A stretch of 64,000 nucleotides of DNA from Pseudomonadota bacterium (GTDB lineage Bacteria > Pseudomonadota > Gammaproteobacteria > Pseudomonadales > Moraxellaceae). Below the pieces are notes generated by a model. It saw nothing but the letters and a program-made list of their open reading frames with translations. It searched no databases and was not told the DNA's origin. Where the stretch lies: contig JAJXWR010000003.1 of the NCBI GenBank assembly GCA_021781515.1, forward strand, positions 3,370 through 67,369, written 5' to 3'. A program made the position numbers and the translations under genes. Shown here in pieces: positions 10,277 through 57,985 of the stretch; the stretch's first letter is position 1, and the number at the start of each line of letters is the position of its first letter.

Positions 10277-10413
10277 GCTGTTAGCACACCGCCCGACTCT
10301 CCCTGTGCACCGGTAATATGTCCGGACGACAGGCGAAACAGGCAGTGAGGTTCCTCCCTCTGGTCAACACACCATAAACGTAATTTTCTGTTGATTAAAA
10401 TCAAAAAACCAAC

Positions 10414-20106: not shown

Positions 20107-20179
20107 CTCACCACCGTTCTACTACCTCACCACCGTTCTACTACCTCACCACCGTTCTACTACCTCACCACCGTTCTAC
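20107..20179. repeat. 19-bp tandem repeat, about 3.8 copies (CTCACCACCGTTCTACTAC)
   Basis: Units at 20107-20125, 20126-20144 and 20145-20163, plus a partial unit at 20164-20179. The last copy contains the stop codon and final codons of the helicase gene. Confidence 0.95.
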
Positions 20180-23059
20180 CGCCGCACGCAATGGTGGCAT
20201 TATCCTGTCACGTACATCACCGCCTAGCCCCCCTTCGGTCATCAGCGTTTGCATTACTTTGTCTACAAGAAAGGTGCTGCTCTTCTGAATCACAAATTCA
20301 TTGATCAATGGCAAATTAAGTGCCTTGAACACCGGTACCCAGATTTCTTGCTCTCCCTGTCCCCAACGCACCTGAAGTTTCGGATCCAGGTGATAACATC
20401 CCCGCAGGGTACGCAAGAATAAAAACCGGTTATACGCATAATCCCGGTTCCGTTCATTGCGCGACAACACCGCCGAAATACTCTGCCGTGTATTGCGCTT
20501 GACTGAAACCACCCGAGCCGACAGATGCTTCCACGCCGCTTCTATGGATTGCGCCTCGATTGCATGACAGGGCAATTCGTTAAAACTGGTTTTCGTTAGC
20601 ACCCAGAGGGTCTGAAAAATCATATACTCCGCCAGGTGGCGATCTATACGCCGCAATCGGCCGTTACTCAGCACATCGACAGCGGCAGGGGCCAATAATT
20701 CGTAGAGTTCCGGAAATAGTTTGCGCGCAAAATTCTTCTCTGAAAACGCTTCACGCATTGCCCAATGCAGCGCATTCCAACCATAATGATCCACCGCCGT
20801 CTGACTGGCACCCCGTTCCAACAGTGCTTCCACCAGAGGGATATTGCCGGCTGCCGCCGCCGCCATCAATGGGGTCTGATTCATTGGCAACCGGTGATCC
20901 ACACCAAACTGATCACACTGCCTGAGCACCTCTTTGAGGTTTTTATTAAAATAATGCACATAGCTCTTGCGTCCCAACGTCGTGTTTTTCTGCCGGTATC
21001 CCACCGCATAATTCACGATGTACTGCCCTGTCAGCCCCAACTCCAGGGCAGGCTCTGCATGGCAGGCCGCATACTCCTGCAACTGACGTTTGAGTTTTTG
21101 CCCAGGTGCCGGTGCTTTAAACACTTTGACCATGGTGTCCTTGATTCTTTCTGCATCAAAAACCGGCCAAGGGGGCAACTGTTGCTTCAGGATGGTTTTA
21201 CGAATCGCATCCGCCTGTTCCTGCTTCCCCTGCAATTCAAGTTTATGCGCTTCCCGTTGCCATTCCTCCAGCGTCGAGGTTTGGGCTTCCACCTGCACTT
21301 TTCCCGACTTCGTCAGTCCTAGCAATTCCAGCAACGGGTGCCGGGCATCCGATTCCAGAATATAAAGATTACTAACCGCACGGGTGATGGCCACATAAAG
21401 CGCATTAACAAAGAACTTGTATATTTCCAGTGACTTGTCGTTCTTGTCCCGGGCACGATGGTAACTCAACTCCTCCATGGACTCCAGGTCAGCCCGGTTC
21501 ACCCCTTCGGCAATCGAGGCAAATTCTGCCCGGTGATCCGAAACAAAGCGAAACAGCACAATATTTTCGTATTCCAGACCCTTGGCCTCGTGAATGGAGA
21601 ACAGCAGCGGCGTAGAAAAATATTTTCTTGCCTCCGTCTTGTCCTCATCGCGCATCACCAGCACCGCATATTGCGTTGACTGACGGATCTGTTTGTCCAT
21701 ATCCCGCCGGATAACCTCCGTATCCGCCAACAACAACACCTGACCGGCAGCACCACCCACCGAATTCACCAGAAAATTACTTTCCCGGTCAATTGAACCA
21801 AAACGCAAATATTTAATTTTCAGTAATTGGTTGGCAACCCGGGTCGCCTCTGTGCCATTACGAAAATTTGCCGTCAGAATATTCAACTGATGCTGATCGG
21901 CCAGATTTTCATTTTTCCAGAACAGGGTTTTAATCTGCGCCCAGGAAAAAAAATTGGGATGCACAATCTGATTAGAATCACCGCATAATAAAAAACGTCC
22001 CGGTTGCTTCAGTGCTTTCAATACCAGTGCCAACTGCACGACCGTCAAATCCTGAACTTCATCCACGACCACAAAATCATATTCAGACTGGACCACGGAC
22101 TGCCAGCGGTACGCCACCCTGTTAATATCATAAAGGTGCGCTTCATCCATCCAGGCGGTATAACGCTCAAAGCAATCATATAAATGATGCCGTTGTTCCA
22201 AAGGAAAAATAGACTGACGCACCCCCAGTTCCAGATAATGCGCACGCGACAGAGTTCCTGTCTCCGATGCCGTGATTACCCCGCGAAACTCCTCGAACAC
22301 CTGATGGGCATCCAGTTCCCTGAACGCTATGCGCATCCGGGCAAACCAGGCCGAAAAATCCCGCCATAGGACTTCCCTGCCCTCAGGCACCTGAATCGAT
22401 TCAACAAATTCACGAAATGACAAAAAGACAGATTCTTGTTGAAAATTTTCATAACCCAGAGAAAAATACAGATCACTGGCATTCTTTGCCAGATACGCCG
22501 AGTGCGTGACATACAGCACCTTGCCCTCGATCTGCTTGAGCTTTTCCAGCGTCAATGCGGTTTTTCCACTTCCGGCACTGCCGATGATAATCAGCGGCGG
22601 CGACTGGCGGTAAATCACTTCCTGCCGATCATCAAAGGAAATGGGCTTATCCAGTATATGAATCCGCTTGCATTCGGGATGCAGGTAGCGCATTGGCAGT
22701 GATTCATGCAAAGCATCCTGGAGAGCCTCCTGCAAACTGGCTTCAGGAATCTTGCTCTCATCCACCAGCGCTCCTCGCAAAAAACGCGAGCTTCCATAAT
22801 CATGCTGATAAATTATTTCCAGCATCAATGCAACCACCTGATCCGCATGACGAATCAGACAAAACAACAAGCGATCCGCATCATTCAGTCGGGCACGATA
22901 GAAATTGATCTTGCCCACCTTGTGCATTTTTTTTACCTGCGCCGCACGAAAATCATCACGCAAAATAGCGGCTACCACTTTGTCATAAGCGGCCTGCACT
23001 GGTTCTGTTTTTAACCCTTCATAGATCAATACTTGCAAGATACCCTCGCTACGGTGCAA
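20165..23059 (-). CDS. Multidomain protein: RelE/ParE-like N-terminal region + UvrD/REP-type SF1 helicase/ATPase + ankyrin repeats + C-terminal region of unknown function
   Basis: Walker A is IIGSAGSGKT; DExx-like is VVVDEVQDL. LLCGDSNQ, FSIHEAKGLEYENIVLF and YVAITRA are UvrD_C-type motifs. The ankyrin signature is TPLMAAAAAGNIPLVEALLERGASQTAVDHYGWNALHWA. The N-terminus has INFYRARLNDADRLLF...LEIIYQHDY. The first codon in the track is TTG, so the exact start is uncertain. Confidence 0.8.
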   Translation of the reverse strand: MHRSEGILQVLIYEGLKTEPVQAAYDKVVAAILRDDFRAAQVKKMHKVGKINFYRARLNDADRLLFCLIRHADQVVALMLEIIYQHDYGSSRFLRGALVDESKIPEASLQEALQDALHESLPMRYLHPECKRIHILDKPISFDDRQEVIYRQSPPLIIIGSAGSGKTALTLEKLKQIEGKVLYVTHSAYLAKNASDLYFSLGYENFQQESVFLSFREFVESIQVPEGREVLWRDFSAWFARMRIAFRELDAHQVFEEFRGVITASETGTLSRAHYLELGVRQSIFPLEQRHHLYDCFERYTAWMDEAHLYDINRVAYRWQSVVQSEYDFVVVDEVQDLTVVQLALVLKALKQPGRFLLCGDSNQIVHPNFFSWAQIKTLFWKNENLADQHQLNILTANFRNGTEATRVANQLLKIKYLRFGSIDRESNFLVNSVGGAAGQVLLLADTEVIRRDMDKQIRQSTQYAVLVMRDEDKTEARKYFSTPLLFSIHEAKGLEYENIVLFRFVSDHRAEFASIAEGVNRADLESMEELSYHRARDKNDKSLEIYKFFVNALYVAITRAVSNLYILESDARHPLLELLGLTKSGKVQVEAQTSTLEEWQREAHKLELQGKQEQADAIRKTILKQQLPPWPVFDAERIKDTMVKVFKAPAPGQKLKRQLQEYAACHAEPALELGLTGQYIVNYAVGYRQKNTTLGRKSYVHYFNKNLKEVLRQCDQFGVDHRLPMNQTPLMAAAAAGNIPLVEALLERGASQTAVDHYGWNALHWAMREAFSEKNFARKLFPELYELLAPAAVDVLSNGRLRRIDRHLAEYMIFQTLWVLTKTSFNELPCHAIEAQSIEAAWKHLSARVVSVKRNTRQSISAVLSRNERNRDYAYNRFLFLRTLRGCYHLDPKLQVRWGQGEQEIWVPVFKALNLPLINEFVIQKSSTFLVDKVMQTLMTEGGLGGDVRDRIMPPLRAAVERW

Positions 23060-23616
23060 TAAAAAAAAGCGTCAGAGAAACCAGATGATAACCCGTTACT
23101 TCATGTACCTGACCGTGTTGCCACAAGACAAGGCACCCCCGTTCACCTTGGCTACCAGCTTTGAATGCTTCCATCCGGTATTATATAATCAGTTCTTCTG
23201 ATATTTCACAGAACAAGCGCAATTATCTGCAGCATTGACCGCTCATGAAACCTCAGGAAGACAGCCCAACGGCCAGCACACCCACTGGATCGGAAGCAAT
23301 ACACCGCATTGATGTTCTGCATAAGATGCTTTCCAGACCTCTCGTAAATCGCAGCAATCAATACTGCATAATCATCCGTTACCTGATGCAAGCAAGGCCA
23401 AGATAGTTTTAGACGCAATCTAATAAACATTATTCTTATTATTAAATAATATATAAATCTCGCTGATAGTCATCAGCACCACAAGTTCATCCCCAATCTC
23501 TATTATTTATTTAAATAGTGACCTACGTCATTTATATTACAATTTTTTGCGCACAGACTAAAGCAATTTCAGTGAGAAACAGGAACCGTTTTTCTTTTTT
23601 TCATTATGGAGGCATC

Positions 23617-25857
23617 GTGATAGAAAACAGGATCGCTAATTTTTTAGCGTTGCTTTTCATCGGATTAATTACGTTGAGTCTAGTAAGTTGTGGCGGTGGT
23701 GGCAATGGAAACAGTACCAGCAACACAACGGCCTCCGTTGCCCGTTTTGCAGGCAATTACAGTGGCACTTATTCCGGTTCTGGAGTATCGGGAACCTGGA
23801 GCGCAACAGTGGATAATCAGGGGAACATTACCGGAACCGCCGGCGACAGTTCCGGTTCAATCCATCTGACAGGTAACGTCACTGCGACCGGTCAACTGAG
23901 CATGACTTCTCCCGATGCCTCTTTCGGTGGTTCAGCCAGCGGCAGTATTGATGCCAACGGAAATTTTAACGCCAACTGGACTACCGCTACCCCACCAGGG
24001 AACACCATCACAATTTCCGGAACCAGAGCATCCTCAGTGGCCACCTCAACCCTTACCGGAACCGTTTTGGTCAATAAAAGCACGGCGGTCAGTAAGGCTG
24101 CCGTGGTGTTGTGGGCCTCCGATCCTCAGCAAGGTGCCGTCGCCATCGGTAAGTCCACCTCGGACAGCAACGGTCAGTTTACGATCAGCTATTCGAATCC
24201 TGCCAATAGCGATGTCCTCTATGTCACCGCCTATCAGGGCAACGTTGGATCCGCCAGTAATAATACAGCACTGCAGCTGGCAGCCAGTGTAGGCGTCGCC
24301 TCTTCTTTGGCGACCACCACCGACATCACACTCAACGAGTTATCCACCGTCGCCTTTGCTCAGGTCTTTGGTCGCTCGTACACCGCCAACGGCTTGCAAA
24401 ATGCCACGGCCACTCAGGCCAGTACCGTTCGTGCGTTAGTGAACACCAATGGCCAGATGCAAACGCAAGACGGTACCATGATCCCCTCCCTGAACTGGCA
24501 GGCAGATATTCTGGCGTCCTGTTCGCTGTCCGTCAGTAATTGCACCACCTTGCAAACAGCCAGTTCTGCTTCCGATGTATTCCTTTCGCTGGTTAGTTGG
24601 GCGATTGCCAATAATTCAGTGGACTGGAAAACCTTGGGTACACTGGTCAGCTCCACCCCTCCTTACGACAGCACTACCTTTCCGGTCGCCACTTCATTGC
24701 ATGGTTTTGCACAACCACTGACCATTACATTGAACAATAGTACGCTGAATAAGGCATTGAGTCAGCCACAGGGAATCGCCATCGACACGCAATGCAATGT
24801 GTGGGTAGGCAGCAATGCCAACCCTGGCTATGTCAGTGAAATCAATTTGGCCTCGCAAAAGGTCGTGGGTCTGGTGTCAGGCACACTGGGACAACCCATG
24901 TCCTTTAATAAGCCCAACACCCTGGCCAGCGATAGCCAGGGAAATGTCTGGATTCTTGATGGCAACCAAAATGTCGCTTTATATTCACAAAATGCGGTGC
25001 AGACACCATGGAGTACTGGGCCATACTCCACCATTGCGTCTGTCCAAGGATCCGGTGCCATCGGCATCTGGGGAACAACACCAGGTTCGCCTGCTCAACT
25101 CGTCAATAATCAGGCGGCGGCGCCATTCAATCCCAGTCTCTCTATTAAAACGCTTGGGGTAAGCATTGCCGCTGATACCTCGGGCAAATTTGTCTATGTG
25201 GCAGACAACGATAAATCCATCAGCCAATACTCGACCAATCCCTTGGCACTTGTTTCTTCGTATAATACACTTCCTTCTGCTACAGGCGTCATTACCGTCG
25301 ATTCCAATGACCATGTCTGGGGCTTGATGGCAAGTTCAAGCACCATGTTTTACCTCGATTTTTCTGCATCCTCTACTCCATCCAGTTTTTATGCCTCTGT
25401 TCCCCTGCCCAATTCCATGAAAACATTGACTGCATCCACCGAACAGGTGTCCATGGCCATTGATGGTAACAATAACGTCTGGTTTGTCGATTCGGCATTC
25501 GATAATGTCTTCGAGTACCTGCCTTCCAGTAAAAACTGGTCTGTTTTTAATCTTCCCTCAGGCAGCGGCCCGGTTAACCTGGCCATTGATGTCTGGGGGG
25601 ACGTGTGGGTAGTCGATAATAATAGTAATGCAGTCACGGTTATGCCCGGTGCAGCGGTACCTGTGGGCTCTTGCAAGCCTACAGGCGTCACTACGGCATT
25701 GGGCGGCAGTGTTTCCGTGCCCACCCAGGACGTCAACTGGAATCCAGCCAGCACCCAAAACCTGACTCCGGTGTCGAACAGTTCATCCACCGCAACGCCT
25801 ACCGGGAACACCAATAATTACTGGTATTGGTGGGGCTGGAATTTCATGTTGAGCTAA
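23617..25857 (+). CDS. Large lipoprotein with NHL/Vgb-like beta-propeller repeats
   Basis: A GTG at 23617 lies 4 nt after a GGAGG SD. The signal ends in the lipobox LSLVSC followed by GGGGNGN. Recurrent D(S/T/G)xxNVW(V/I/F)xD blades are present (DTQCNVWVGS, DSQGNVWILD, DSNDHVWGL, DGNNNVWFVD, DVWGDVWVVD). The protein is Thr/Ser-rich and has a Trp-rich C-terminal tail (NNYWYWWGWNFMLS). Confidence 0.7.
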   Translation: MIENRIANFLALLFIGLITLSLVSCGGGGNGNSTSNTTASVARFAGNYSGTYSGSGVSGTWSATVDNQGNITGTAGDSSGSIHLTGNVTATGQLSMTSPDASFGGSASGSIDANGNFNANWTTATPPGNTITISGTRASSVATSTLTGTVLVNKSTAVSKAAVVLWASDPQQGAVAIGKSTSDSNGQFTISYSNPANSDVLYVTAYQGNVGSASNNTALQLAASVGVASSLATTTDITLNELSTVAFAQVFGRSYTANGLQNATATQASTVRALVNTNGQMQTQDGTMIPSLNWQADILASCSLSVSNCTTLQTASSASDVFLSLVSWAIANNSVDWKTLGTLVSSTPPYDSTTFPVATSLHGFAQPLTITLNNSTLNKALSQPQGIAIDTQCNVWVGSNANPGYVSEINLASQKVVGLVSGTLGQPMSFNKPNTLASDSQGNVWILDGNQNVALYSQNAVQTPWSTGPYSTIASVQGSGAIGIWGTTPGSPAQLVNNQAAAPFNPSLSIKTLGVSIAADTSGKFVYVADNDKSISQYSTNPLALVSSYNTLPSATGVITVDSNDHVWGLMASSSTMFYLDFSASSTPSSFYASVPLPNSMKTLTASTEQVSMAIDGNNNVWFVDSAFDNVFEYLPSSKNWSVFNLPSGSGPVNLAIDVWGDVWVVDNNSNAVTVMPGAAVPVGSCKPTGVTTALGGSVSVPTQDVNWNPASTQNLTPVSNSSSTATPTGNTNNYWYWWGWNFMLS

Positions 25858-31007: not shown

Positions 31008-32462
31008 TCAGGTGCCGAACAGCCGGTGCCATATTTTTTTGATCCCCTGTTTGACCGAAGTGTTGTGTGCATGCTGAGCATGCCCTCGATGATTACGAGG
31101 GCTGGCATGCTCCGACGTTCTGCGCACCTGACTGAGTTCCCAATTGTCCTTCTTATGCCTTAATTCCTGATACAATACCGGCAGTTGAGTGTCTCCCGGC
31201 CGGATCATAAACGCCTTGTCCAGCAACTGATGCGCCAATACCCAGTCGTGCCGGGCTTCGGCGCGGCCGGCCAGTTGCAGAAAATCCCGCTCAATCCACA
31301 ACAATCCCTGCAATGCCTCTGGGTTCGCCGGAGCCACTTGCAGTACCCGGCGATACCAGTCCAGCGCACTATCCCCCGCCGGAGTCATCAAAAAGCCGGC
31401 CTGCCCCCGGGCATGTGCCACCCTCAACCAATGCCGTACCTGACTCGCCCGGAACCATTGTTCACCGAGGAACACGAGACTGATCGCCAACAACAAAACG
31501 CCGGGATAAACCATGATCCGCCGAATCCGTTGCAAACGGCCACGCCACACGGACGGCACGGGCGTCAGAGCGGCGATGCCCACTAATGTTACATCCACGT
31601 CCTGCGCCTGTAACTCTCTGGCCTGAATAGCATCGGCCAGTTCCTGCATTCCAGGAAACCGTTGTTCCGGTGATTTAGCCAACAACCTGTCCACCACCGG
31701 CTGCCAACCCTGTCGCTGCACAGGCAGTTGCGGTGCCGGCATCTGCAACTGGTTGATCAGTGTCGTCGCATACTGCTCAGCCCGATAAGGATTATGCCCC
31801 AACAGCAATTCCAGCAGAACAATGCCAACACTGTACTGATCGCTGCGCACATCCACTGCCGCCGCCATGACCTGCTCCGGACTGCTATAAGCAGGACTGC
31901 CAACGACGGTACCGGTCTGGGTCAACTCCAGATTGACATCATGGCGTCTGGCAATACCAAAGTCACTCAATACCAGCGACTCATCTTCACGAAAAAGAAT
32001 ATTGGCGGGTTTAATATCCCGATGCACGATGCCTTCTGCATGAATGGCACGCAGTGCTTCCACCAGTTGTAACATCCATTGACTGATGAGTGAATCGGAC
32101 AATCCGGCTTTTATACGGGTACGCAAATCACCACCGGCCAATCGCTCCATCGTAATATAGGGCCGACCATCATCTAGCACCCCCACATCATGAATCGTCA
32201 CGACATGGCGATGATTGATGGCCGCCAACAGACGGGCTTCCTGGAGAAAGCGCTGAATCAGCGCCGTATCCCCTTCCTTCATGACCTTGACCGCCACCGG
32301 TCGTTCCAGTCCTTGTTGTACAGCGGCATAAACCACCGCCATCCCCCCTTCAGCAATCACCCCCTCAATATGACACCCAGGAACCAGCAACTGATCATAT
32401 GTATTTTCTGTATTGATTTGGTCTTTCTGAGGCACTATCGGATAACGCTGCTTGTCCCCCAT
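31008..32462 (-). CDS. Ser/Thr protein kinase with a TM segment and a C-terminal TPR-like region
   Basis: Hanks motifs: GGMAVVY, AVKV, HRDIKPANILF, DFGIA, SPAYSSPEQ. A hydrophobic segment (VYPGVLLLAISLVFL) is followed by a helical repeat region. I prefer the ATG at 32462; the GTG at 32471 is also possible. Confidence 0.85.
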   Translation of the reverse strand: MGDKQRYPIVPQKDQINTENTYDQLLVPGCHIEGVIAEGGMAVVYAAVQQGLERPVAVKVMKEGDTALIQRFLQEARLLAAINHRHVVTIHDVGVLDDGRPYITMERLAGGDLRTRIKAGLSDSLISQWMLQLVEALRAIHAEGIVHRDIKPANILFREDESLVLSDFGIARRHDVNLELTQTGTVVGSPAYSSPEQVMAAAVDVRSDQYSVGIVLLELLLGHNPYRAEQYATTLINQLQMPAPQLPVQRQGWQPVVDRLLAKSPEQRFPGMQELADAIQARELQAQDVDVTLVGIAALTPVPSVWRGRLQRIRRIMVYPGVLLLAISLVFLGEQWFRASQVRHWLRVAHARGQAGFLMTPAGDSALDWYRRVLQVAPANPEALQGLLWIERDFLQLAGRAEARHDWVLAHQLLDKAFMIRPGDTQLPVLYQELRHKKDNWELSQVRRTSEHASPRNHRGHAQHAHNTSVKQGIKKIWHRLFGT

Positions 32463-32574
32463 CCTGATCACACTCCATCGGGTCTTGCCAAGCGGCTATT
32501 TTACGCTCAGAATCGCCATGAATACAGATACAATACTGAAGCTTTACCAAAAGCCATTGAGAACAGGATTTCCC

Positions 32575-43040: not shown

Positions 43041-43531
43041 GTGCCTACGTAAATAATGCCGGCAATACGCTCAGAAGCAGCCAGCCCCAATGCGGTGCCT
43101 ACCCCCGGATCAACAGCCATGGCTCCGGTGCGCCAGATAGCAGCAAAGCCATGAGCATGCAGTGCCAGCAAAAAATTCTGCACCGATGCCCCCATACTCA
43201 ATACCTGCTCTGCCTCCGGCACCACTGACTCCAAACGCAATACCTGCACCGCAATAACCAGCATCGGTGCCCGTAATGGCTGAGCACGCAAGCGCTGCAA
43301 CTCTTCTTCACTACGTTCAGGAAACAGGTGCCGTTGTGAAGCACAGAACACCTCCGCCAGACGCTCACGTCCATTGCCCTGCACCACCACATAGCGCCAT
43401 GGCTGCAAAGCACGATGATCCGGTGCCCGTAAAGCCGCCAAAAAGCATTTTTCCAACACATCGATCCCAGGTGCCGGTGCAATCAGCACTGCCTGTGAGG
43501 TACGACTGATCAATCCCAGATAGAGTTCCAT
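42977..43531 (-). CDS. NAD(P)H nitroreductase family protein (YdjA-like)
   Basis: 184 aa with APDHRALQPWRYVVV and GASVQNFLLALHAHGFAAIW, as in the nitroreductase fold. Confidence 0.8.
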   Translation of the reverse strand: MELYLGLISRTSQAVLIAPAPGIDVLEKCFLAALRAPDHRALQPWRYVVVQGNGRERLAEVFCASQRHLFPERSEEELQRLRAQPLRAPMLVIAVQVLRLESVVPEAEQVLSMGASVQNFLLALHAHGFAAIWRTGAMAVDPGVGTALGLAASERIAGIIYVGTCRTPRVVVLPEVQRFWSSWP

Positions 43532-43670
43532 AGTCCCTCAAACGGACACAAAGTGAAATATTTTGTTGCAATGTCATAAATTTTACATACAATTTGCTAC
43601 AGATCAATTGCAAATCCAGTTTTGCGTTGATAATAAAGCGACCCACACAACCGTTCACAGGTGTATTACT

Positions 43671-45080
43671 ATGAACAACAAGTTACTCTCGCCATCATGG
43701 CGTTTGCTTTGTCTCCCGCTGGTCGGCGGCTTTATGGTGCAGACTGCCCACGCTGTGCCCAGTTTTGCTCGTCAAACCGGTCTGGCTTGTGAAGCATGTC
43801 ACTCCATGTACCCTGAATTAACCCCTTTTGGCCGTCAATTCAAGTTGAACGGTTACACCATGACGGGTATAAAGCAGGTGGAGTCCAAGGAAACTGACAG
43901 TTCAGCGGGTATGCGCATGAACCAGATACCACCGTTATCTGTCATGGTTCAGACACAGATTACCAGCGTAAGAGGTGAAAACAGATCGGCGGCCGCTATT
44001 CCCGGTAATCCAAGCGGTTCGTTTACGCAGCCCAATGCAACCCAAGACAACATATCCTTCCCGCGCCAGTTCAGCCTCTTCTATGCTGGGGAAATATCTT
44101 CCCACATGGGAGCCATGTTACAGGTAACTGGAGATAATGGAGGAAGTATATCGCAAGACAACTCGGAAATTCGCTACGCCAGTCAGTTTATGACTGGCGG
44201 AACAGGGATTGCCTACGGAATCACATTGAATAACAACGTTGGCATGGAGGATCTGTGGCAAGATACCCCAACCTGGGGATTCCCATTTATTCACCCCAGT
44301 GGTACTCCTGTAGGGGGCACTGCCGCTGGAAGCGGTTATCTGGCGGCTAATCTCGGGCAAAATGTGGCGGGAATCGGTGCCTACACTATGATCGATAACC
44401 ACTACTACGCTGACTTCACACTTTATCGTACTGACGTGGTGGGCAATAACAAATACAAGGCAGGAACTGACTATGGCACTGCGATGATTGATGGTCTGGC
44501 TCCCTATCTGCGTTTGGCCTACCAGACTGACATTGGTGATGGTAGTCTGGAAGTTGGCGTATGGGGTATGTCTGCTAATCAGTTGCCGTATAACACCAAC
44601 TTCATTATAGGTTCCAATACGTACGCAGCTACGACTAATATTGGTGGTCCGTCAGATCATATCGTTGACAAAGCTATTGACAGTCAATTTGAGTTACCTC
44701 TTGGCAACAATGAGTTGGTAATGCATGGAACCTATGTTCGTGAATCCGACGACGAGAGGTCTTCGTCTCCGGGGAATTATGCCGACCTGAATACGTTGAA
44801 GCTCAGTGGCTCTATGCATTTTAATAACCGCCAATCGTTCTCACTAATGTACACACACAGTTCAGGAACTACTAACTCTGTGTATTTTGGCGACACGACT
44901 ACGCCTCCACAGGATTCGGCATGGATGGTGCAGTATGAGTATTTGCCGTGGGAAAACGTGCAGTTAGGAGCTCAGTACTGGATGTTTACACGGTACAATG
45001 GCCCATCGACGTACAATACTGCGGGAACATCGCCGCATGCCAACGACACAGCCATGCTATATGGTTGGTTTATGTTCTGA
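43671..45080 (+). CDS. Cyc2-like fused monohaem cytochrome c / outer-membrane beta-barrel protein
   Basis: A signal peptide (MNNKLLSPSWRLLCLPLVGGFMVQTAHA) is followed by PSFARQTGLACEACHSMYPELTPFGRQFKLNGY with a single CxxCH (nt 43788-43802). Then come about 400 G/T/N/Y-rich residues ending in YGWFMF, an aromatic C-terminal OMP signal. Confidence 0.65.
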   Translation: MNNKLLSPSWRLLCLPLVGGFMVQTAHAVPSFARQTGLACEACHSMYPELTPFGRQFKLNGYTMTGIKQVESKETDSSAGMRMNQIPPLSVMVQTQITSVRGENRSAAAIPGNPSGSFTQPNATQDNISFPRQFSLFYAGEISSHMGAMLQVTGDNGGSISQDNSEIRYASQFMTGGTGIAYGITLNNNVGMEDLWQDTPTWGFPFIHPSGTPVGGTAAGSGYLAANLGQNVAGIGAYTMIDNHYYADFTLYRTDVVGNNKYKAGTDYGTAMIDGLAPYLRLAYQTDIGDGSLEVGVWGMSANQLPYNTNFIIGSNTYAATTNIGGPSDHIVDKAIDSQFELPLGNNELVMHGTYVRESDDERSSSPGNYADLNTLKLSGSMHFNNRQSFSLMYTHSSGTTNSVYFGDTTTPPQDSAWMVQYEYLPWENVQLGAQYWMFTRYNGPSTYNTAGTSPHANDTAMLYGWFMF

Positions 45081-45114
45081 TCGAATGCATGTTTGATAGT
45101 GTTTATATCCTGGA

Positions 45115-45141
45115 GAAGGGGCTTGATGCCCCTTCTTTTTT
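45115..45141 (+). terminator. Rho-independent terminator after the Cyc2-like gene
   Basis: GAAGGGGC (45115-45122), loop TTGAT, GCCCCTTC (45128-45135), then TTTTTT (45136-45141). Confidence 0.8.
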
Positions 45142-45363
45142 GGTAGCCGTTCAGACTCTATGGGATGAGCGATTAATAAAAGACAAATCAATCCGATAAG
45201 GTTTTTATCAAAGAATGAGGGGAAAATAGCGCAATCGCACTGAATTAATTGGCTATTAATAATTACAAAGATGCGTTAGTATCCTGTTTGAGGTCTTTTA
45301 AACCAGTCTGTTCAACGTAGATGTTTGTCATATCATTCGTCGCAACCTCCGGTTGATTTAAAC

Positions 45364-45792
45364 ATGAGAATTTTTAGTAGCACATCTGTTAGTATTTTCA
45401 ACGTATTATTGTGGAGTATGTTGTCAACTATTGCCCATGCCGACTCAACAACACCCTCTAGAAGTGAATTTGATGCCCTTGAAAAAAGAGTTGAACTTCT
45501 AGAGAAAACCATCAACACCCCGACATCAGCTACAACAGCCAATGCAAACAACAACGACCATGCGCATGGCCATTGGGTAACGGATGCACCTGCCGATCAA
45601 TACAAAAACTGGAGTTCCATTAAAGCCGGCATGAGTTCTAACGATGTTAAGGCACTAATCGGTAGTCCTACGAATATAATAAAGATAAACTGGCAAAACA
45701 TTTGGTTTTACCAGACAAATTCAGGTAATGGTTCAGTCGTATTTGCGAATAATGGAAGTGTAAGCCAGATCCAGATACCTCCACTACACTGA
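45364..45792 (+). CDS. Secreted protein with a coiled-coil segment and a BamE/SmpA_OmlA-like C-terminal domain
   Basis: The signal is MRIFSSTSVSIFNVLLWSMLSTIAHA. SEFDALEKRVELLEKTIN is coiled-coil. SSIKAGMSSNDVKALIGSPTNI...WFYQ resembles the BamE-type fold signature (G.t..qV...lG.P). Confidence 0.5.
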   Translation: MRIFSSTSVSIFNVLLWSMLSTIAHADSTTPSRSEFDALEKRVELLEKTINTPTSATTANANNNDHAHGHWVTDAPADQYKNWSSIKAGMSSNDVKALIGSPTNIIKINWQNIWFYQTNSGNGSVVFANNGSVSQIQIPPLH

Positions 45793-45823
45793 ATAACCTC
45801 AATATTATTTCTGGAGCATACTC

Positions 45824-52246: not shown

Positions 52247-52275
52247 TTGTCATAAATATGTAGTCATTTTGTCAC
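52247..52275 (+). promoter_or_regulatory. Pho-box-like array upstream of the TonB-dependent receptor operon
   Basis: TTGTCAT-AAAT-ATGTAGT-CATT-TTGTCAC: three 7-mers at exact 11-bp phasing. The consensus is CTGTCAT-AWAW-CTGTCAY. A TACATT -10-like hexamer (52287-52292) lies 11 nt downstream, and no -35 is evident, as expected for PhoB-type promoters. Confidence 0.4.
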
Positions 52276-52342
52276 AATATTTCGCTACATTTCTGCGGCT
52301 TTTGCACCTTCGTATTGATGTAGGTCATTTTATTTTTTTACA

Positions 52343-52378
52343 TCACTTTTTTGGGGAATCTCACTTTTTTGGGGAATC
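52343..52378. repeat. Perfect 18-bp tandem duplication (TCACTTTTTTGGGGAATC x2) in the receptor leader
   Basis: Units at 52343-52360 and 52361-52378, ending 1 nt before the AAGGAG SD of the receptor gene. Confidence 0.95.
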
Positions 52379-52391
52379 AAGGAGCTTCAAG

Positions 52392-54641
52392 ATGTCAACC
52401 AGCCACTATCGCCTGCAATTTTTCGTCAGGATGGCGTTATCAGGCCTAATCAGCCTCAGCGCACAGACTTACGCTGATTCCAATCCCTCTGTGGATCTGG
52501 GCACTGTACAAAACGATGCCGGTGACATGAATAACCATGCGACCGAAGATACACACAGCGAATCAGCCCCGGCTCAGGCCCCAACGCAGGCATCGCTCTC
52601 GGAAACCGAGCCGGCCTCCATTATCTCCCGGCATTATATTGAAGAAAACGCCGGACCCGGTTCAAACTACACGGATATTGTCAGTATTGCACCCAGCGTC
52701 TGGAACGTTGACCCCAATGGCAATGGCCTGATGGAATCGCAAGGTCTGAGCATCCGCGGATTTCAGGACGGGCAGTACAATGTGACGTTTGATGGCATTC
52801 CCATTGGCGACTCCAATGATTTTACCCACCATTCGACCTCGTATTTTATGCCGCAGGATTTGGGAGCCATTACCGTGGACCGAGGTCCTGGCAGTGCGGC
52901 GACCATTGGTGACGCCACTTTTGGCGGGACGATTGCCAATACCACCAAAGATCCTTCAGCCGTCGCTGGCCTCAGTCCCTATCTAAGTTACGGCAGTTTC
53001 AATACGCGTCTGATTGGTGGTGAGTTTGATTCCGGTACCTTACAAAACTGGGGGGATGCCTCCGCCTACATGGACGTCAAACAGTTGAGCTCCGATGGCT
53101 ATCTGAGCAACTCCAATCAACGTCGTACCAATGCGTTGTTCAAGCTGCTCAAACCCCTGAATGACAGCACCGTGCTGACGCTCATGGGCATGTACAACGA
53201 TCTGAACCAGAATGTTCCGCTCGGTGCCACACTGACACAGATGGCGGCCTACGGCAATAATTTCGGACTGTCCAGCAACCCGAACAGCCAGACCTTCTCC
53301 GGCTACAACATGGACAAAATCAGTGGGGATATGTCGTACATCGGCATTAACACCGTACAGAATTCTTGGACAATTGATAACAAACTCTACACTTTTGGCT
53401 ATCGGCATCATGGTTATAACGGCAATGACCTGAGTCAGACCTTTGCCATGGAATCCACTGGCCCTAACAAAGATCTGGGAACCACCTGGGGCGCTACTGA
53501 TGTTCCCGGGCAAGCGATGACCATGATGTACCGCTCCGTCGGCGATACCCTGCGAGCCTCTGATCATCTGGCTGCCGGTGATCTGAACGTTGGCCTCTGG
53601 TACGATCATCAAGACAACAGTCGTTCGCAGTTTGAAGTGGATTACACCCTGGGACAGGCGCTGAACCCCGGTGGGTCAGCCAGTGCGCCCAATCCTTTAT
53701 CGGCGGCAACGGATCGTCTGATGACCGACACGCTGGACACCCTGCAGCCGTATGCCGAGTTCGCCTGGAAAGCCACCGAGGCGTTGACAATACGTCCTGG
53801 CCTGAAATACGTTTCCTTCACCCGGCATGTCAATGCCCCGGTGGACCAGGGCACCAAACAGTCGCTGGACTACAGCCACACCTGGTCACAGGCGCTGCCT
53901 TCCCTGGATATACATTATCAACTGACTCGCCACTGGATTACCTATGCACAAGCCTCCGAAGGCTTTTTAGCACCTAACCTGAATACGTTTTATACGGCCA
54001 CTCCTGGATCCAGTGACTTGAAGGCTCAAAGTACGCAGAACTATCAGTGGGGAACGGTCTATAAAACCCAGCGATTCACCGGTGATTTTGATCTGTATTA
54101 TATTCGTTTTGCGAACCAGATACTGAGTCAGAACAATAATTCCAATCCAAACAACATCATTTTTTATAACTCCAATGGAGCAACCCATTACAAAGGTGTA
54201 GAAGCTGAAGGAACCTATTATCTGGGCAGTGGATTCAGTCTGTACAGCAACGGCTCAGTCAACAGTGCCCACGATAGCGCTGGCAACTGGCTACCCAATG
54301 CCCCGATCCGAACCATGGCTAACGGCCTGACCTATGACCGCAATGGCCTTTACCTGTCGCTGCTGGACAAGTTTATCGGCCAGATTCACAGCCCGGATAC
54401 CGGAACACTTTACCCGAACGGCGCTAATTTTAGCGGCACCCTTGGGGGATTCTCGACCGCCAGCCTGACGACCAGCTACAGTTTCGGTAAAGATCAGGCG
54501 ACCCGAGTCAGTGTTCAGGTGGATAATCTGTTCAATCATTCCGGATTGTATATGACCAATGGCACTGGTACTAACGGCGACGTCATTTTCTGGAGTATCC
54601 CAGGGCGCGCATTAACGCTGTCGATGAATACAAAAATCTAA
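52392..54641 (+). CDS. TonB-dependent outer-membrane receptor
   Basis: The ATG at 52392 follows an AAGGAG SD. The signal is MSTSHYRLQFFVRMALSGLISLSAQTYA. Plug motifs are LSIRGFQDGQYNVTFDGIPIGD, followed by a long beta-barrel with HYKGVEAEG. Confidence 0.9.
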   Translation: MSTSHYRLQFFVRMALSGLISLSAQTYADSNPSVDLGTVQNDAGDMNNHATEDTHSESAPAQAPTQASLSETEPASIISRHYIEENAGPGSNYTDIVSIAPSVWNVDPNGNGLMESQGLSIRGFQDGQYNVTFDGIPIGDSNDFTHHSTSYFMPQDLGAITVDRGPGSAATIGDATFGGTIANTTKDPSAVAGLSPYLSYGSFNTRLIGGEFDSGTLQNWGDASAYMDVKQLSSDGYLSNSNQRRTNALFKLLKPLNDSTVLTLMGMYNDLNQNVPLGATLTQMAAYGNNFGLSSNPNSQTFSGYNMDKISGDMSYIGINTVQNSWTIDNKLYTFGYRHHGYNGNDLSQTFAMESTGPNKDLGTTWGATDVPGQAMTMMYRSVGDTLRASDHLAAGDLNVGLWYDHQDNSRSQFEVDYTLGQALNPGGSASAPNPLSAATDRLMTDTLDTLQPYAEFAWKATEALTIRPGLKYVSFTRHVNAPVDQGTKQSLDYSHTWSQALPSLDIHYQLTRHWITYAQASEGFLAPNLNTFYTATPGSSDLKAQSTQNYQWGTVYKTQRFTGDFDLYYIRFANQILSQNNNSNPNNIIFYNSNGATHYKGVEAEGTYYLGSGFSLYSNGSVNSAHDSAGNWLPNAPIRTMANGLTYDRNGLYLSLLDKFIGQIHSPDTGTLYPNGANFSGTLGGFSTASLTTSYSFGKDQATRVSVQVDNLFNHSGLYMTNGTGTNGDVIFWSIPGRALTLSMNTKI

Positions 54642-54660
54642 CTAAGTACAATATGTTATA

Positions 54661-54689
54661 CAGATTGCCCACCTTGCGTGGGCAATCTG
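54661..54689 (+). other. Perfect 12-bp stem-loop between the receptor gene and exbB
   Basis: CAGATTGCCCAC (54661-54672), loop CTTGC, GTGGGCAATCTG (54678-54689). No clear U-tract follows, so it may be an attenuator or mRNA-stabilising element rather than a full terminator. Confidence 0.5.
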
Positions 54690-54732
54690 GATTCTGGCAA
54701 GCGTATTATTTCATTTAATTAAGGAACACTTC

Positions 54733-55398
54733 ATGACACTTATGCACCTTAAGCATTTAGCCGAGGCCTCCGGCGGCATTTTATACCTCATGGCCATCCT
54801 GTTGTTGATTGCGCTGACTGTCGTTATTGAACGTAGCTGGTACCTGTACCAAGCGCTGCATGCCGGTCAGGCGTTGATGTTGTCTCTGGATGAATCTCAC
54901 ACTGCCAGTGTGCAATCCCTGCAACAACTCAGCTTAAGTTATCAAGGCATGCCACATGAACGTCTGCTGAAAACCGCCATTATCTTGAGGCAGGAACCTG
55001 ATGCCGAACACGAGGACGCCCGTATGGAAGAATCCATCATGCGGGAGATTCCCCATATCGATCGTTTTCTCTGGATGCTCGACACCATTGTCACCCTGGC
55101 ACCACTGCTCGGTCTCCTGGGAACCATCATTGGCATGTTCAGTGCGTTTTCAGTACTGGCCGATGCCAACAATGCGCCGACGCAAGTCACGGGTGGAGTG
55201 GCGGAAGCCCTGATTGCAACGGCCTGTGGCCTGTTCATTGCCATTCTGGGTCTGGTCGCCTTTAACGGCCTGAATAATCGGGTACGGGTCATCATGCACC
55301 AGTTGGAAACCGTCAAACTGATGTTACTCAACCGGGTCAAACAACCAAAACGCAACCGCCAGTCCGACAACGAAAAGATGGCCGCCGAGGTGTTCTGA
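54733..55398 (+). CDS. exbB: MotA/TolQ/ExbB proton-channel protein
   Basis: 221 aa with three TM segments and LGLLGTIIGMF...GGVAEALIATACGL, the ExbB/TolQ signature. Confidence 0.9.
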   Translation: MTLMHLKHLAEASGGILYLMAILLLIALTVVIERSWYLYQALHAGQALMLSLDESHTASVQSLQQLSLSYQGMPHERLLKTAIILRQEPDAEHEDARMEESIMREIPHIDRFLWMLDTIVTLAPLLGLLGTIIGMFSAFSVLADANNAPTQVTGGVAEALIATACGLFIAILGLVAFNGLNNRVRVIMHQLETVKLMLLNRVKQPKRNRQSDNEKMAAEVF

Positions 55399-55401
55399 AC
55401 C

Positions 55402-55803
55402 ATGCGCTATTTTGAAGTACGCAAAGCCCGCATTGAAATTATTCCAATGATAGATATCATGTTTTTTTTGCTGATATTTTTCATTATGTTTACTCTGCAC
55501 ATGATTCCTTCCAAAGGACTCAGTTCCAGTCTGGCCAGCAGTTCCACCACAACGGCTTTGCCACATCCGCAGGTTATTGTCAGCCTGAATACGCAAGGAC
55601 TCATTGAGGTCAATAATCAATCGCTGAGTCCGCTGCAATTAACCCAGTATCTGCAACGGGGGCCGGGAAATCCTCGGGATACTATTGTCACCATTGCTGG
55701 AGCCCGTGATACCTCTTTACAACATCTGATGACAGTCATGGATGCCTGTCGCCAGGCCGGAGTTACCCAAATTGGTCTTGCCGCCCGTGAAATCCATCCT
55801 TAA
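55402..55803 (+). CDS. exbD: Biopolymer transport protein ExbD/TolR
   Basis: 133 aa with IEIIPMIDIMFFLLIFF (N-terminal TM with the conserved Asp) and a periplasmic domain. Confidence 0.9.
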   Translation: MRYFEVRKARIEIIPMIDIMFFLLIFFIMFTLHMIPSKGLSSSLASSSTTTALPHPQVIVSLNTQGLIEVNNQSLSPLQLTQYLQRGPGNPRDTIVTIAGARDTSLQHLMTVMDACRQAGVTQIGLAAREIHP

Positions 55804-56479
55804 AGCAAATCTGTCCCGGGCCGCCTTACTGGCCTGCATGATTGAAGCCGGAATGCTGGCCGGGTTAGTCTGGGCCATGGCGCAGGCACACCCCCACACA
55901 GAACCACCGACCATCAAAGTCATGCTCAGTTTTCCGGTACTGCCAACACCGGTAAAACCAGAAACTCCGCCGCCACCCAAACCGGTGATCCGGCATGCGG
56001 TGCATCCGGCAATACAGCCGCAGCAAGCGCAACCCCGACCACAACCACTACTGCCACCGCTACCGCAGGACCCCACTCCCGTCAGCCAGCCCAAACCCCC
56101 GCCGGTCACAGCAGCGCCTGTCTCGACCCCACAAGTGACGGCCCCTGTGACCCCGCCTGCACCGGTGCAACCCGATCCCCATCTGCTGGCAACGTTTAAC
56201 GAGCAGGTACTGGGAGCCATTCAGTCCGCAGTAAACTATCCGCTGGCAGCGCGGATGGCACATATGCACGGCCGCACCCGGGTTGGTTTCACCTATCTCG
56301 ATGGAGTGGTCAGCAATGTCACCGTCATTACGACCTCGGGCTATCGCTTACTGGATGATGCCGCCATTCAGGCGGTGATGACGGCGCACTACCCGACCCC
56401 CCCCGCAAACCTGCGATCCAGACCCTTACCCTTCAGCCTCTGGGTCAACCATGAATTACGTAATGAGGAAGATGATTAG
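55787..56479 (+). CDS. tonB: Energy transducer TonB
   Basis: A GTG start (VKSILKANLSRAALLAC..., TM anchor) overlaps the exbD end. It has a long Pro-rich spacer (PVKPETPPPPKPV...) and a C-terminal TonB_C block (YPLAARMAHMHGRTRVGFTY...GYRLLDDAAIQAV). Confidence 0.8.
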   Translation: MKSILKANLSRAALLACMIEAGMLAGLVWAMAQAHPHTEPPTIKVMLSFPVLPTPVKPETPPPPKPVIRHAVHPAIQPQQAQPRPQPLLPPLPQDPTPVSQPKPPPVTAAPVSTPQVTAPVTPPAPVQPDPHLLATFNEQVLGAIQSAVNYPLAARMAHMHGRTRVGFTYLDGVVSNVTVITTSGYRLLDDAAIQAVMTAHYPTPPANLRSRPLPFSLWVNHELRNEEDD

Positions 56480-57985
56480 ATGTTTTTTATATTTTTACAC
56501 CGTTGGCAAGATCAACCGTTGCACCGCCTGCGCAGTGCATTTTACGCCACTCTCCTGAGCATATTCAGCACAGGCTTTGCGCTTGCTGCCCCATTCCAGC
56601 ACGTACTTCTGCTCAGTGTTGATGGTCTGCATGCAGAAGATCTACAATGGGTACTGCAACAGCAACCGCACTCCCAACTGGCGCAATGGGCGGCGCAAGG
56701 CACAGTGTTCAGTGAAGCCCGTACACCGGTCCCGGCCGATTCATTTCCCGGTCTGGCCGCCTTGCTAACTGGCGCACCGCCTGCAGTGACTGGCCTCTGG
56801 TACGATGTTGCTTATGACCGGCAGTTATCTCCCCCGGGTTCTGACTGTACAACGCACGGCACTATTGTCCGTTATGATGAAACCATTGACGGCGCCAATG
56901 GCGGACTCAATCCAGAATTATTGCCCCGTGACCCGGCTCAGCACTGCCAACCGGTATTTCCGCATCAGTTTCTTCTGGTCAATTCTGTATTCGATGTTTT
57001 GCATCAGCAGCATTTACCAACGGCGTGGATGGACAAACACCCCGCTTATGAATTTGTATCAGGGCATCAGGGAAATGCAGTGGATGACCTGTATACACCG
57101 GAAATTGGGGCCAATTATGAAGGCAAGACCACACTGAACAATCAGATCGCCCGTTCACTCGATAAGACAGAGCAGTATGATGCCGACAAAATCCACGCAT
57201 TAATGCAACAACTGCAAGGTCAAGGACATGACGGCCAGCACCCGGGCCCCGTACCGGCCCTGCTGGGTCTCAACCTGCAGGCAGTCAGCGTAGCCCAGAA
57301 ATTATATGGTTACCTACCACATCGCCTTCCCTCGCCGGCACTGGCACAAGCATTATTGGCTACAGACGCCTTACTGAGGCAACTACAGGACACGTTGAGT
57401 GCCCAACACCTGGATGCAGCGACCCTGATCATTGTCACCGCCAAACACGGCAACAGCCCCATCAATAGCCAGAAAATCCGCCACATTGAGGAAAAACAGT
57501 TAAGGGCTGCCATAGAAAGTGCCGCTCCTGGCGCACTGGTTCACCTGATCGCCGATGATGGAGCCCTGATCTGGCTCAAATCAGCAACGGCCAGACCCGC
57601 CGTCATGCAGTACCTGAAACAGCACCACCAACAGCTCGGTATTCACCGGGTACTGGACAGCCAAGGGACTGTTTTACATTGGCCTGCCAACAATCGCACC
57701 CCTGATCTGGTGCTTGAAGCCGATTACGGGGTTATTTATGGGGCCGCACACACCCGGAAAAAAGCCGAACATGGCGGCTTCAACGACGAAGACCGCCATG
57801 TGGCGCTACTGATCCGGGACGGCTACCCTGCGCAACAAATCCACCAATCGGTCAGCACACTACAAGTCGCACCCACCATCCTGAGCGCCTTGGGGCTTAA
57901 TCCTGAAGCGCTAGATTCGGTGCAGCAGCACCTCTGTCGAAATTTACCTGCACTGCACTGGATACCCCCTGCGAGAATCGACTAG
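56480..57985 (+). CDS. Alkaline-phosphatase-superfamily protein (nucleotide pyrophosphatase/phosphodiesterase-like), secreted
   Basis: The ATG directly abuts the tonB stop (TAGATG). After a signal-like segment come VLLLSVDGLHAEDL and PADSFPGLAALLTGAPPAVTG (metal/nucleophile region of the NPP/AP fold), and later TAKHGNSP and EHGGF. Confidence 0.7.
   Translation: MFFIFLHRWQDQPLHRLRSAFYATLLSIFSTGFALAAPFQHVLLLSVDGLHAEDLQWVLQQQPHSQLAQWAAQGTVFSEARTPVPADSFPGLAALLTGAPPAVTGLWYDVAYDRQLSPPGSDCTTHGTIVRYDETIDGANGGLNPELLPRDPAQHCQPVFPHQFLLVNSVFDVLHQQHLPTAWMDKHPAYEFVSGHQGNAVDDLYTPEIGANYEGKTTLNNQIARSLDKTEQYDADKIHALMQQLQGQGHDGQHPGPVPALLGLNLQAVSVAQKLYGYLPHRLPSPALAQALLATDALLRQLQDTLSAQHLDAATLIIVTAKHGNSPINSQKIRHIEEKQLRAAIESAAPGALVHLIADDGALIWLKSATARPAVMQYLKQHHQQLGIHRVLDSQGTVLHWPANNRTPDLVLEADYGVIYGAAHTRKKAEHGGFNDEDRHVALLIRDGYPAQQIHQSVSTLQVAPTILSALGLNPEALDSVQQHLCRNLPALHWIPPARID

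Follow-up and report, generated by a model that had tools for sequence, protein, structure and literature searches.

A probable Cyc2-family monohaem cytochrome–porin fusion, with a conserved downstream partner gene, in an uncultured gammaproteobacterium

INTRODUCTION

No other marker gene for microbial iron oxidation is used as widely as Cyc2, and of its homologues, which number thousands, most belong to organisms in which iron oxidation has never been shown. A 64 kb stretch of contig JAJXWR010000003.1 (assembly GCA_021781515.1), hereafter the window, contains a further candidate, a gene for a 469-residue protein in which one CxxCH motif lies directly N-terminal to a predicted beta-barrel. A first-pass annotation had called the product a Cyc2-like cytochrome–porin fusion, encoded by a stand-alone gene, and had suggested that it bears on the physiology of the host, which is an uncultured gammaproteobacterium without close cultured relatives. 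Two questions follow. Does the gene belong to the Cyc2 family, and, if it does, can the host be read as an iron oxidizer? We find the first very probable and the second doubtful.

RESULTS AND DISCUSSION

The window protein carries the haem motif and barrel of Cyc2

Published criteria for recognizing Cyc2 are a signal peptide, a single CxxCH, the motif AxPxFAR[Q/K][T/Y], said to occur in Cyc2 alone, a PxL motif, 365 or more residues and a 16-strand porin resembling OprP/OprO (PMC8406198); the FeGenie paper sets its Cyc2 length limit at 375 residues. Every sequence and structure feature on this list, that of Keffer et al., was found in the window protein. Its four parts, as first annotated, are a signal peptide, a block with the only CxxCH (PSFARQTGLACEACHSMYPELTPFGRQFKLNGY, present as written), a porin-sized region and an aromatic C-terminus (Table 1). 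By inspection, residues 1–28 resemble a Sec signal, with a basic N-terminus, a hydrophobic core and an AHA-V junction. Next comes the block AVPSFARQTGLACEACHSMYPELTPFGRQFKLNGY, which holds the protein's one CxxCH, CEACH (residues 40–44, nt 43788–43802; Cys40, Cys43 and His44). AVPSFARQT (residues 28–36) stands three residues ahead of Cys40, PEL occupies residues 48–50 with its proline as the fourth residue past His44, and FGRQFKLNGY spans residues 53–62. Cys40 and Cys43 are the only cysteines of the mature protein, which is rich in G, T, S, A, N and Y and ends in YGWFMF. A lipoprotein signal at Cys14 was considered and rejected, as there is no lipobox and the cysteine is not conserved.

Homologues of this protein are numerous. 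A word-indexed search returned more than 2,479 of 410–510 residues, nearly all of them unnamed and a few labelled 'cytochrome C', and an exhaustive HMMER search with the family profile gave 5,458 representatives of 50%-identity clusters at E ≤ 1e-3 (2,654 at E ≤ 1e-10). Each of the 120 homologues listed has exactly one CxxCH and ends in W, F or Y, and 113 of the 120 have the full N-terminal motif with identical spacing. When 36 homologues were aligned, the invariant positions were A28, P30, S31, A33, R34, Q35, T36, G37, C40, C43, H44, P48, L50, F53, G54, F57, K58 and Y62. The first of these, A28, closes the variable hydrophobic N-terminus, and conservation is highest in the stretch of ∼35 residues around CxxCH.

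The remainder of the protein is predicted to form a porin. An AlphaFold2 model built from the family alignment (pLDDT 70.7, pTM 0.74) has 16 long strands, assigned by DSSP, between residues 89 and 468. The top PDB matches found by Foldseek are all 16-strand porins, namely OmpT/OmpU, OmpF, PorB and OprP 2o4v (E 3e-10 to 1e-7), the last of which is a template also found by Keffer et al. (PMC8406198). Target-normalized TM-scores of 0.53–0.64 to OmpF/OmpC, OmpU/OmpT, PorB and OprP/OprO indicate the same barrel fold. These general porins share ∼10–14% identity with the window protein and are without a haem segment, whereas the window protein adds the conserved N-terminal cytochrome motif. Thus, conservation of CxxCH among homologues and prediction of a beta-barrel, both proposed earlier as checks on the Cyc2 call, came out in its favour.

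Cluster 1 of the Cyc2 family (Zetaproteobacteria, Gallionellaceae and Chlorobium) includes the neutrophilic Fe(II) oxidase of Mariprofundus ferrooxydans PV-1 (PMC8406198). Searching with the published mass-spectrometry peptides of Cyc2PV-1, we obtained close Zetaproteobacterial Cluster 1 sequences, among them those of the reference isolates Mariprofundus ferrinatatus CP-8, M. aestuarium and M. micogutta; the CP-8 protein is listed as Cluster 1 in Fig. S7 of Keffer et al. In a collection of 5.8 billion sequences, the peptide query met no identical protein, the best hit matching the longest peptide stretch at 84% identity. Either Cyc2PV-1 is absent from that collection, as it seems, or the word filter did not reach it.

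BLASTP against the CP-8 protein aligned the haem motif only (59% over 27 residues, E 5e-8), a pairwise score better than the limit of E 1e-5 used for similarity to an accepted Cyc2. When hhalign compared the profile of the window family with that of 26 Zetaproteobacterial Cluster 1 sequences, the alignment extended over 374 columns (probability 99.6%, E 1.7e-24, 18% identity), and positions in the barrel common to both include G140, G147, G183, R281, G296, D337, Y424, N429 and Y436. Because the profiles align over this length and the barrel positions are shared, we conclude that the window protein is a full-length homologue of validated Cyc2. Also held in common are the signal peptide, the single CxxCH after AxPxFARQT, the PxL and FGRxFK motifs that follow, a 16-strand OprP/PorB-like barrel and the aromatic C-terminus. 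The window protein differs in being ∼50 residues longer and in having no cyc1 or cbb3 context in view. On this evidence, we regard membership of the Cyc2 family as highly probable, in line with the first-pass annotation.

The fused cytochrome–porin architecture is shared with two further members of the family, which were compared by their descriptions in the literature. One is Cyc2 of Acidithiobacillus ferrooxidans, from which the window gene differs in context: the rus-operon layout (cyc2, cyc1, cup, coxBACD, rus) is not present within the 64 kb, nor is a cupredoxin or aa3 oxidase. The other is Cyt572 of Leptospirillum, which stands with the remaining Cluster 3 proteins (some Zetaproteobacteria, Geobacter, Nitrospira, Ca. 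Manganitrophus and Tenderia) and whose haem is unusual and branch very long (PMC8406198). MtoAB, PioAB and MtrCAB also combine an outer-membrane barrel with c-type haem and exchange electrons with extracellular iron. These systems comprise separate proteins, with a 26-strand barrel and a decahaem wire, whereas the window gene encodes one polypeptide with 16 strands and one haem motif.

Gene callers in four public assemblies, and all homologues, begin at ATG 43671. A 505-residue reading from an in-frame TTG at 43563 was rejected on the strength of these starts and calls, and also because the extension would cross a conserved promoter block. An identical protein is present in the metagenome-assembled genome (MAG) GCA_027441375.1 and in three further assemblies.

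Table 1. Positions of the cyc2-like gene, its control elements and the partner gene in the window, and of partner homologues in other loci (L numbers)
Feature	Position	Strand	Remarks
Conserved upstream block	43563–43609	+	Between divergent nitroreductase gene and cyc2-like gene; near-invariant in window, L001 and L003
FNR/ANR-type box TTGCTACAGATCAA	43594–43607	+	One mismatch to TTGAT-N4-ATCAA
Predicted -10 hexamer ATAATA (or GATAAT from 43629)	43630–43635	+	Invariant in alignment of window, L001 and L003
Shine-Dalgarno-like AGGTG	43659–43663	+	8 nt 5' of ATG; kept in L001 and L003
cyc2-like gene, fused monohaem cytochrome c and porin	43671–45080	+	ATG 43671, TGA 45078–45080, 469 residues
Signal peptide MNNKLLSPSWRLLCLPLVGGFMVQTAHA, residues 1–28	43671–43754	+	Predicted cleavage between AHA and VP
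Haem-binding segment, residues 29–88	43755–43934	+	Matches Cyc2 consensus (PMC8406198); family-invariant; common to Cluster 1 Cyc2
Porin domain, 16-strand beta-barrel, residues 89–469	43935–45077	+	AlphaFold2/DSSP strands; Foldseek porin matches
Intrinsic terminator GGAGAAGGGGC-UUGAU-GCCCCUUCUUU, then U run	45112–45144	+	11-bp stem, 45112–45138
Conserved partner gene, 142 residues	45364–45792	+	Signal peptide, predicted trimeric coiled coil, linker, BamE-like C-terminal domain
Partner homologues	L001 4436–4882; L003 5168–5608		Directly 3' of cyc2-like gene
Partner homologues, Sulfuricaulis	L008 2445–2999; L027 8254–8889		
Partner homologue, Zetaproteobacteria	L019 3850–4347		
Partner homologue, Thiohalophilus	L023 11403–11900		
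Partner homologues, Deltaproteobacteria	L022 11322–11789; L038 11396–12058		
Partner homologue, Binatia	L039 5654–6193		

Electron-transfer genes adjoin many relatives of the window gene

To survey neighbours, ORFs were called in 80 loci from species-representative genomes; these loci supplied 78 family genes, which with the window's own make 79. Of the 79, 43 have a gene for a c-type cytochrome next to them on the same strand. In proteobacterial loci this is mostly a dihaem c4-like gene (204–229 residues). Monohaem neighbours (140–165 residues) occur in Bacteroidota and Ignavibacteriota, often followed by genes for a Rieske protein and a cytochrome b/c fusion, and in Acidobacteriota loci the Rieske gene is accompanied by one for a cytochrome b of ∼890 residues fused to four c-type domains. 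The order HiPIP, cyc2-like gene, c-type cytochrome is found on a Caballeronia plasmid (L089 3939–6956), and on the Acidiphilium cryptum plasmid pACRY03 a c-type cytochrome gene lies directly 3' of the cyc2-like gene. Each subclade appears to own a distinct electron-acceptor module. The repeated linkage to c-type cytochromes provides good comparative support for transfer of electrons from the family to carriers in the periplasm. In the Acidobacteriota and Bacteroidota loci L054 (11266–14540), L064, L078, L031 (12727–14697) and L072, a Rieske gene lies 3' of the cyc2-like gene and is followed by one for a cytochrome b with two to four fused c-type domains.

The window itself shows no such linkage. 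Among its ORFs of at least 80 residues there is no further CxxCH, and Pfam scans of ∼50 window ORFs turned up no cytochrome, cupredoxin or haem-copper oxidase, which agrees with the earlier statement that no other cytochrome, rusticyanin or cox gene is present. L001 (62% identity) and L003 (44%) share with the window the gene order fdxA, yiiD-like thioesterase, nitroreductase, cyc2, small gene, mogA-like gene, TPP enzyme, which speaks for vertical retention, and no cytochrome gene lies near cyc2 in the window or in either of these two loci.

A conserved gene for a secreted coiled-coil protein lies downstream

The description of the cyc2-like gene as stand-alone overlooked a conserved gene downstream of it, which is also called in a public assembly (L084). 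Monocistronic transcription, the other half of that description, remains plausible given the terminator between the two genes. The hairpin folds at -20.5 kcal/mol (z = -3.5), and none of 200 shuffled sequences was as stable; the terminator of the first-pass annotation is real. The terminator and the gap of 283 nt together suggest separate or attenuated transcription of the partner gene in the window. In several other loci the partner gene overlaps cyc2 or starts within 70 nt.

Of the 79 family genes, 10, the window's own among them, have a partner gene directly 3', and these are spread over several phyla (Gamma-, Zeta- and Deltaproteobacteria, Binatia). Each partner protein combines a signal peptide with a heptad-repeat segment, a linker of low complexity and, at its C-terminus, a conserved domain. 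In a PDB search, the heptad segment matches trimeric coiled coils and Lpp. The C-terminal domain follows the pattern W..IK.GM....V..L.G.P......W.Y....G.GSV.F...G.V...Q.PP and resembles Pfam BamE (SmpA/OmlA, PF04355), which all ten proteins match below threshold (best E 1e-5; 18.2 bits for the window partner, against a cut-off of 23.2). A single-sequence AlphaFold2 model of the partner, at pLDDT 42, was too poor for a fold search. In a rough neighbour-joining (NJ) tree, Cyc2 proteins accompanied by a partner sit on adjacent sub-branches. We know of no description of Cyc2 paired with a coiled-coil/BamE-like protein.

Base composition sets the two genes apart from their surroundings. GC content is 0.40–0.50 across 43500–45800, which covers the cyc2-like and partner genes (0.41–0.49 for the block that the two share, 0.41 for the latter gene), compared to 0.53–0.59 in the flanks. 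This fits a single unit of distinct origin or composition. Given the synteny with L001 and L003, the low-GC unit must be old in the lineage of the window.

The upstream region contains a conserved, putative FNR/ANR-type site

The 139-bp leader is AT-rich, as noted in the first-pass annotation (36% GC, versus 53% for the window), but it is more than a leader, as it holds a conserved and probably regulatory block containing an FNR/ANR-type box. This block is near-invariant in the window, L001 and L003 even though the encoded proteins are only 44–62% identical; its upstream half reads TTGTTGCAATGTCATAAATTTTACAT. In class II FNR/ANR promoters, the box is centred ∼41.5 nt before the transcription start, and the -10 hexamer lies ∼29–30 nt past the box centre. 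Here, the conserved hexamer begins 29.5 nt past the box centre, which corresponds to class II spacing and implies a predicted transcription start near 43642. Hexamers of the -10-like form TAnnnT lie at the same offset in L025, L048, L018, L017 and L024.

Similar boxes recur in the family, in other classes too. One with no more than a single mismatch precedes 12 of 67 family genes, compared to 4.4% of 771 control genes from the same loci (Fisher P = 1e-4), and the enrichment persists when the window clade is collapsed to one (P = 0.004). Ten of 13 boxes fall 160–192 nt ahead of the FARQ codon. This conserved, putative class II site suggests that the cyc2-like gene may be induced at low oxygen, although such regulation is predicted from sequence. 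Our literature search found no paper tying cyc2 homologues to FNR. A scan of the window for sigma-70 consensus promoters returned 3 sites where 5.2 were expected; as this is not above chance, a TTGCAA-16-TACAAT match was given no weight. A perfect FNR-type palindrome, TTGATTAAAATCAA, occurs elsewhere in the window, at 10391–10404, in the short intergenic stretch between ribF (10414–11352, minus strand) and ileS (7460–10276, minus strand).

A proposed route for electrons

Taken together, the data are best explained by a Cyc2-family monohaem cytochrome–porin of the outer membrane, most likely one that oxidizes Fe(II), and we favour this explanation with some confidence. A role in electron transfer at the outer membrane is likely. 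All three family members tested biochemically oxidize Fe(II) (PMC8406198), which makes Fe2+ the likeliest substrate; that it is the physiological one, as predicted from homology, we put slightly short of an even chance. That Fe(II) oxidation serves as the energy metabolism of this host is a good deal less likely, and we doubt it.

The protein would work as follows. Its sequence features suggest export of the precursor by Sec, with cleavage following AHA28. Given the invariance of CxxCH, haem would be attached covalently at Cys40 and Cys43, with His44 as an axial ligand, by a periplasmic cytochrome c maturation system, the genes of which are not in the window. The barrel would presumably be inserted by BAM by way of its aromatic C-terminus. 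By homology with the model of Keffer et al., the haem segment of ∼60 residues may lie at the periplasmic mouth of the pore or inside it, and a soluble reductant, most likely Fe2+, would enter the pore from outside and be oxidized at the haem. The electron would then pass to a periplasmic carrier, a mono- or dihaem cytochrome c or a HiPIP, and on to an oxidase or bc-type complex. As no such carrier adjoins the window gene, it must be encoded elsewhere in the genome. The partner protein may be an accessory of the subclade that acts in assembly or docking at the periplasmic face.

Cluster placement and alternative functions

A number of observations weigh against reading the window gene as an Fe(II) oxidase under low-oxygen control, or qualify that reading. 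The protein is not a Cluster 1 Cyc2. Identities tabulated by Keffer et al. are 17–23% between clusters and 25–53% within them (Fig. S7), so that the 18% seen here is at the between-cluster level, and the spacing from the haem histidine to PxL is 3 residues rather than the 4 of Cluster 1; the Cluster 1 sequences also form an outgroup in the NJ tree. This matters, as Cluster 1 is the only cluster for which Fe(II) oxidation can be generalized with confidence, function in Clusters 2 and 3 being uncertain (PMC8406198); a Cluster 3 homologue has been proposed to oxidize Mn(II) in Ca. Manganitrophus. In the window, no cytochrome, oxidase, cupredoxin or carbon-fixation gene is adjacent, and the genes in view are of housekeeping or heterotroph type (acyl-CoA dehydrogenases, TonB uptake, biotin synthesis). 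In the AlphaFold2 model the N-terminal ∼60 residues are poorly defined and of low confidence, which bears on the position of the haem relative to the pore; low confidence is expected there of a model built without haem. As for regulation, the box upstream of the gene departs from consensus at one position, and FNR-type boxes across the window (6, with 2.7 expected) are only marginally above chance. Two Acidiferrobacter-type relatives, P0111 and P0055, were considered as rus-operon cyc2 genes that could anchor the family in Cluster 2, and were rejected because they lie outside a rus operon. Given that the protein falls outside Cluster 1 and has no linked respiratory genes, the host cannot be read as an iron-oxidizing lithotroph, and the suggestion in the first-pass annotation that the gene bears on host physiology is weak.

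Indirect clues to placement in Cluster 2 or Cluster 3 conflict. In tblastn searches of plasmids, full-length homologues with 28–32% identity were found in Caballeronia, on Ralstonia solanacearum megaplasmids, in Paraburkholderia and in Acidiphilium, and a sequence-similarity-network study ties the Burkholderiales and Acidiphilium homologues to Cyc2 of A. ferrooxidans (Cluster 2). On the other side, the homologue in L019, a Zetaproteobacteria MAG, is 38% identical to the window protein; according to McAllister et al., Zetaproteobacteria carry only Cluster 1 and Cluster 3 genes, and this homologue therefore points towards Cluster 3. In the plasmid searches, CP084173.1, which is labelled as a plasmid of A. 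ferrooxidans, and NC_009469.1 (A. cryptum pACRY03) gave matches with identical statistics, which suggests the same plasmid segment, shared through transfer or a mixed culture.

Could a protein of this type do something else? One possibility is that it handles another substrate or works in the other direction, taking electrons from Mn(II) or a different extracellular donor or delivering them outward, for instance to Fe(III) under anoxia. Ca. Manganitrophus is proposed to oxidize Mn(II) by means of a Cyc2 homologue, Cluster 3 genes without an assigned role occur in Nitrospira, and the electrode oxidizer Tenderia electrophaga has a Cyc2 homologue; the predicted FNR-type control would suit an anaerobic respiratory role as well as it suits microaerobic iron oxidation. 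Against this stand the Fe(II) activity of every family member so far tested and the argument that a single haem behind a narrow pore limits the substrate to small dissolved ions, and nothing in the lineage of the window speaks positively for another substrate. We therefore rate this alternative as improbable, if worth keeping in mind. A little less probable still is that the protein oxidizes Fe2+ for protection or iron homeostasis in an organotroph, keeping Fe(II) out of the periplasm at low oxygen, in which case the gene would reveal little of how the host gains its energy. The housekeeping and heterotroph-type setting without respiratory partners would agree with this, as would the occurrence of homologues in heterotrophs and plant pathogens (the Ralstonia, Caballeronia, Paraburkholderia and Acidiphilium replicons above), many Burkholderia, Ralstonia and Xanthomonas sequences having been dropped from the tree of Keffer et al. 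as over-sampled (PMC8406198); a low-oxygen signal, moreover, fits the conditions in which Fe2+ persists. In most relatives, however, the gene is linked to genes for cytochromes or for bc-type complexes, which supply a respiratory chain, and with a view of 64 kb the partners may simply be encoded elsewhere.

By comparison, a plain diffusion porin, with a CxxCH near its N-terminus that is there by chance or binds no haem, is very improbable. The barrel does match general porins, and searches of Pfam, NCBIfam and PDB sequences with the cyc2-like protein detected no family. Such a porin would leave unexplained the invariance of the ∼35-residue motif in the 36 aligned sequences and the presence of CxxCH in all 120 listed, the occurrence of the motif in biochemically validated Cyc2, and the fact that its two cysteines are the sole ones in the mature protein.

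Only the partner gene and the FNR-type promoter go beyond the ordinary features of the Cyc2 family. They raise the prospect of a distinct Cyc2 subclade with a dedicated secreted coiled-coil/BamE-like partner, which could cap a trimeric porin or dock onto it from the periplasmic side, the pair being induced by an FNR/ANR-type regulator when oxygen is scarce. We consider this speculative and unlikely as it stands, and the same applies to the membership that it would entail, namely the uncultured gammaproteobacterial lineage of the window, Sulfuricaulis, Thiohalophilus, a Zetaproteobacteria MAG, Deltaproteobacteria and Binatia. To our knowledge, a two-gene, oxygen-limitation-induced redox module of the outer membrane has not been described before. 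If real, it could be a sign of cryptic Fe(II) oxidation, at low oxygen or dependent on nitrate, or of other extracellular electron uptake, in organisms not regarded as iron oxidizers.

Function outside Cluster 1 is an acknowledged open question, and the window gene, as one more such homologue, adds little to it alone. The family-wide comparison offers two handles: the conserved neighbours specific to subclades (dihaem c4, monohaem cytochrome with Rieske/cytochrome b, HiPIP, BamE-like coiled-coil protein) and the FNR-type boxes that recur at a fixed upstream distance. Together, these neighbours and boxes yield testable predictions about redox partners and low-oxygen induction.

Other features of the window

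The window contains no rRNA or tRNA gene. Moraxellaceae MAGs are among the members of the 90%-identity cluster of its ferredoxin, but its IleS reaches at most 68% identity to any sequence and is 60–61% identical to Paraperlucidibaca, Agitococcus and Moraxellaceae and 59–60% to Methylococcales and Thiotrichales, so that these comparisons place the host no lower than Gammaproteobacteria. It holds LPS core glycosyltransferase genes and, at 52269–57985 on the plus strand and ∼7 kb from the cyc2-like gene, a cluster encoding a TonB-dependent receptor, ExbB, ExbD and TonB, followed by a type I phosphodiesterase/sulfatase-like protein; there is no sign that this uptake cluster concerns iron. Three further genes are unusual. 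They encode a 964-residue UvrD/superfamily-1 helicase-like protein with ankyrin repeats (20165–23059, minus strand), a 779-residue protein with no Pfam match (23518–25857, plus strand) and a eukaryote-type Ser/Thr protein kinase (31008–32471, minus strand), a combination that is unusual for a free-living gammaproteobacterium.

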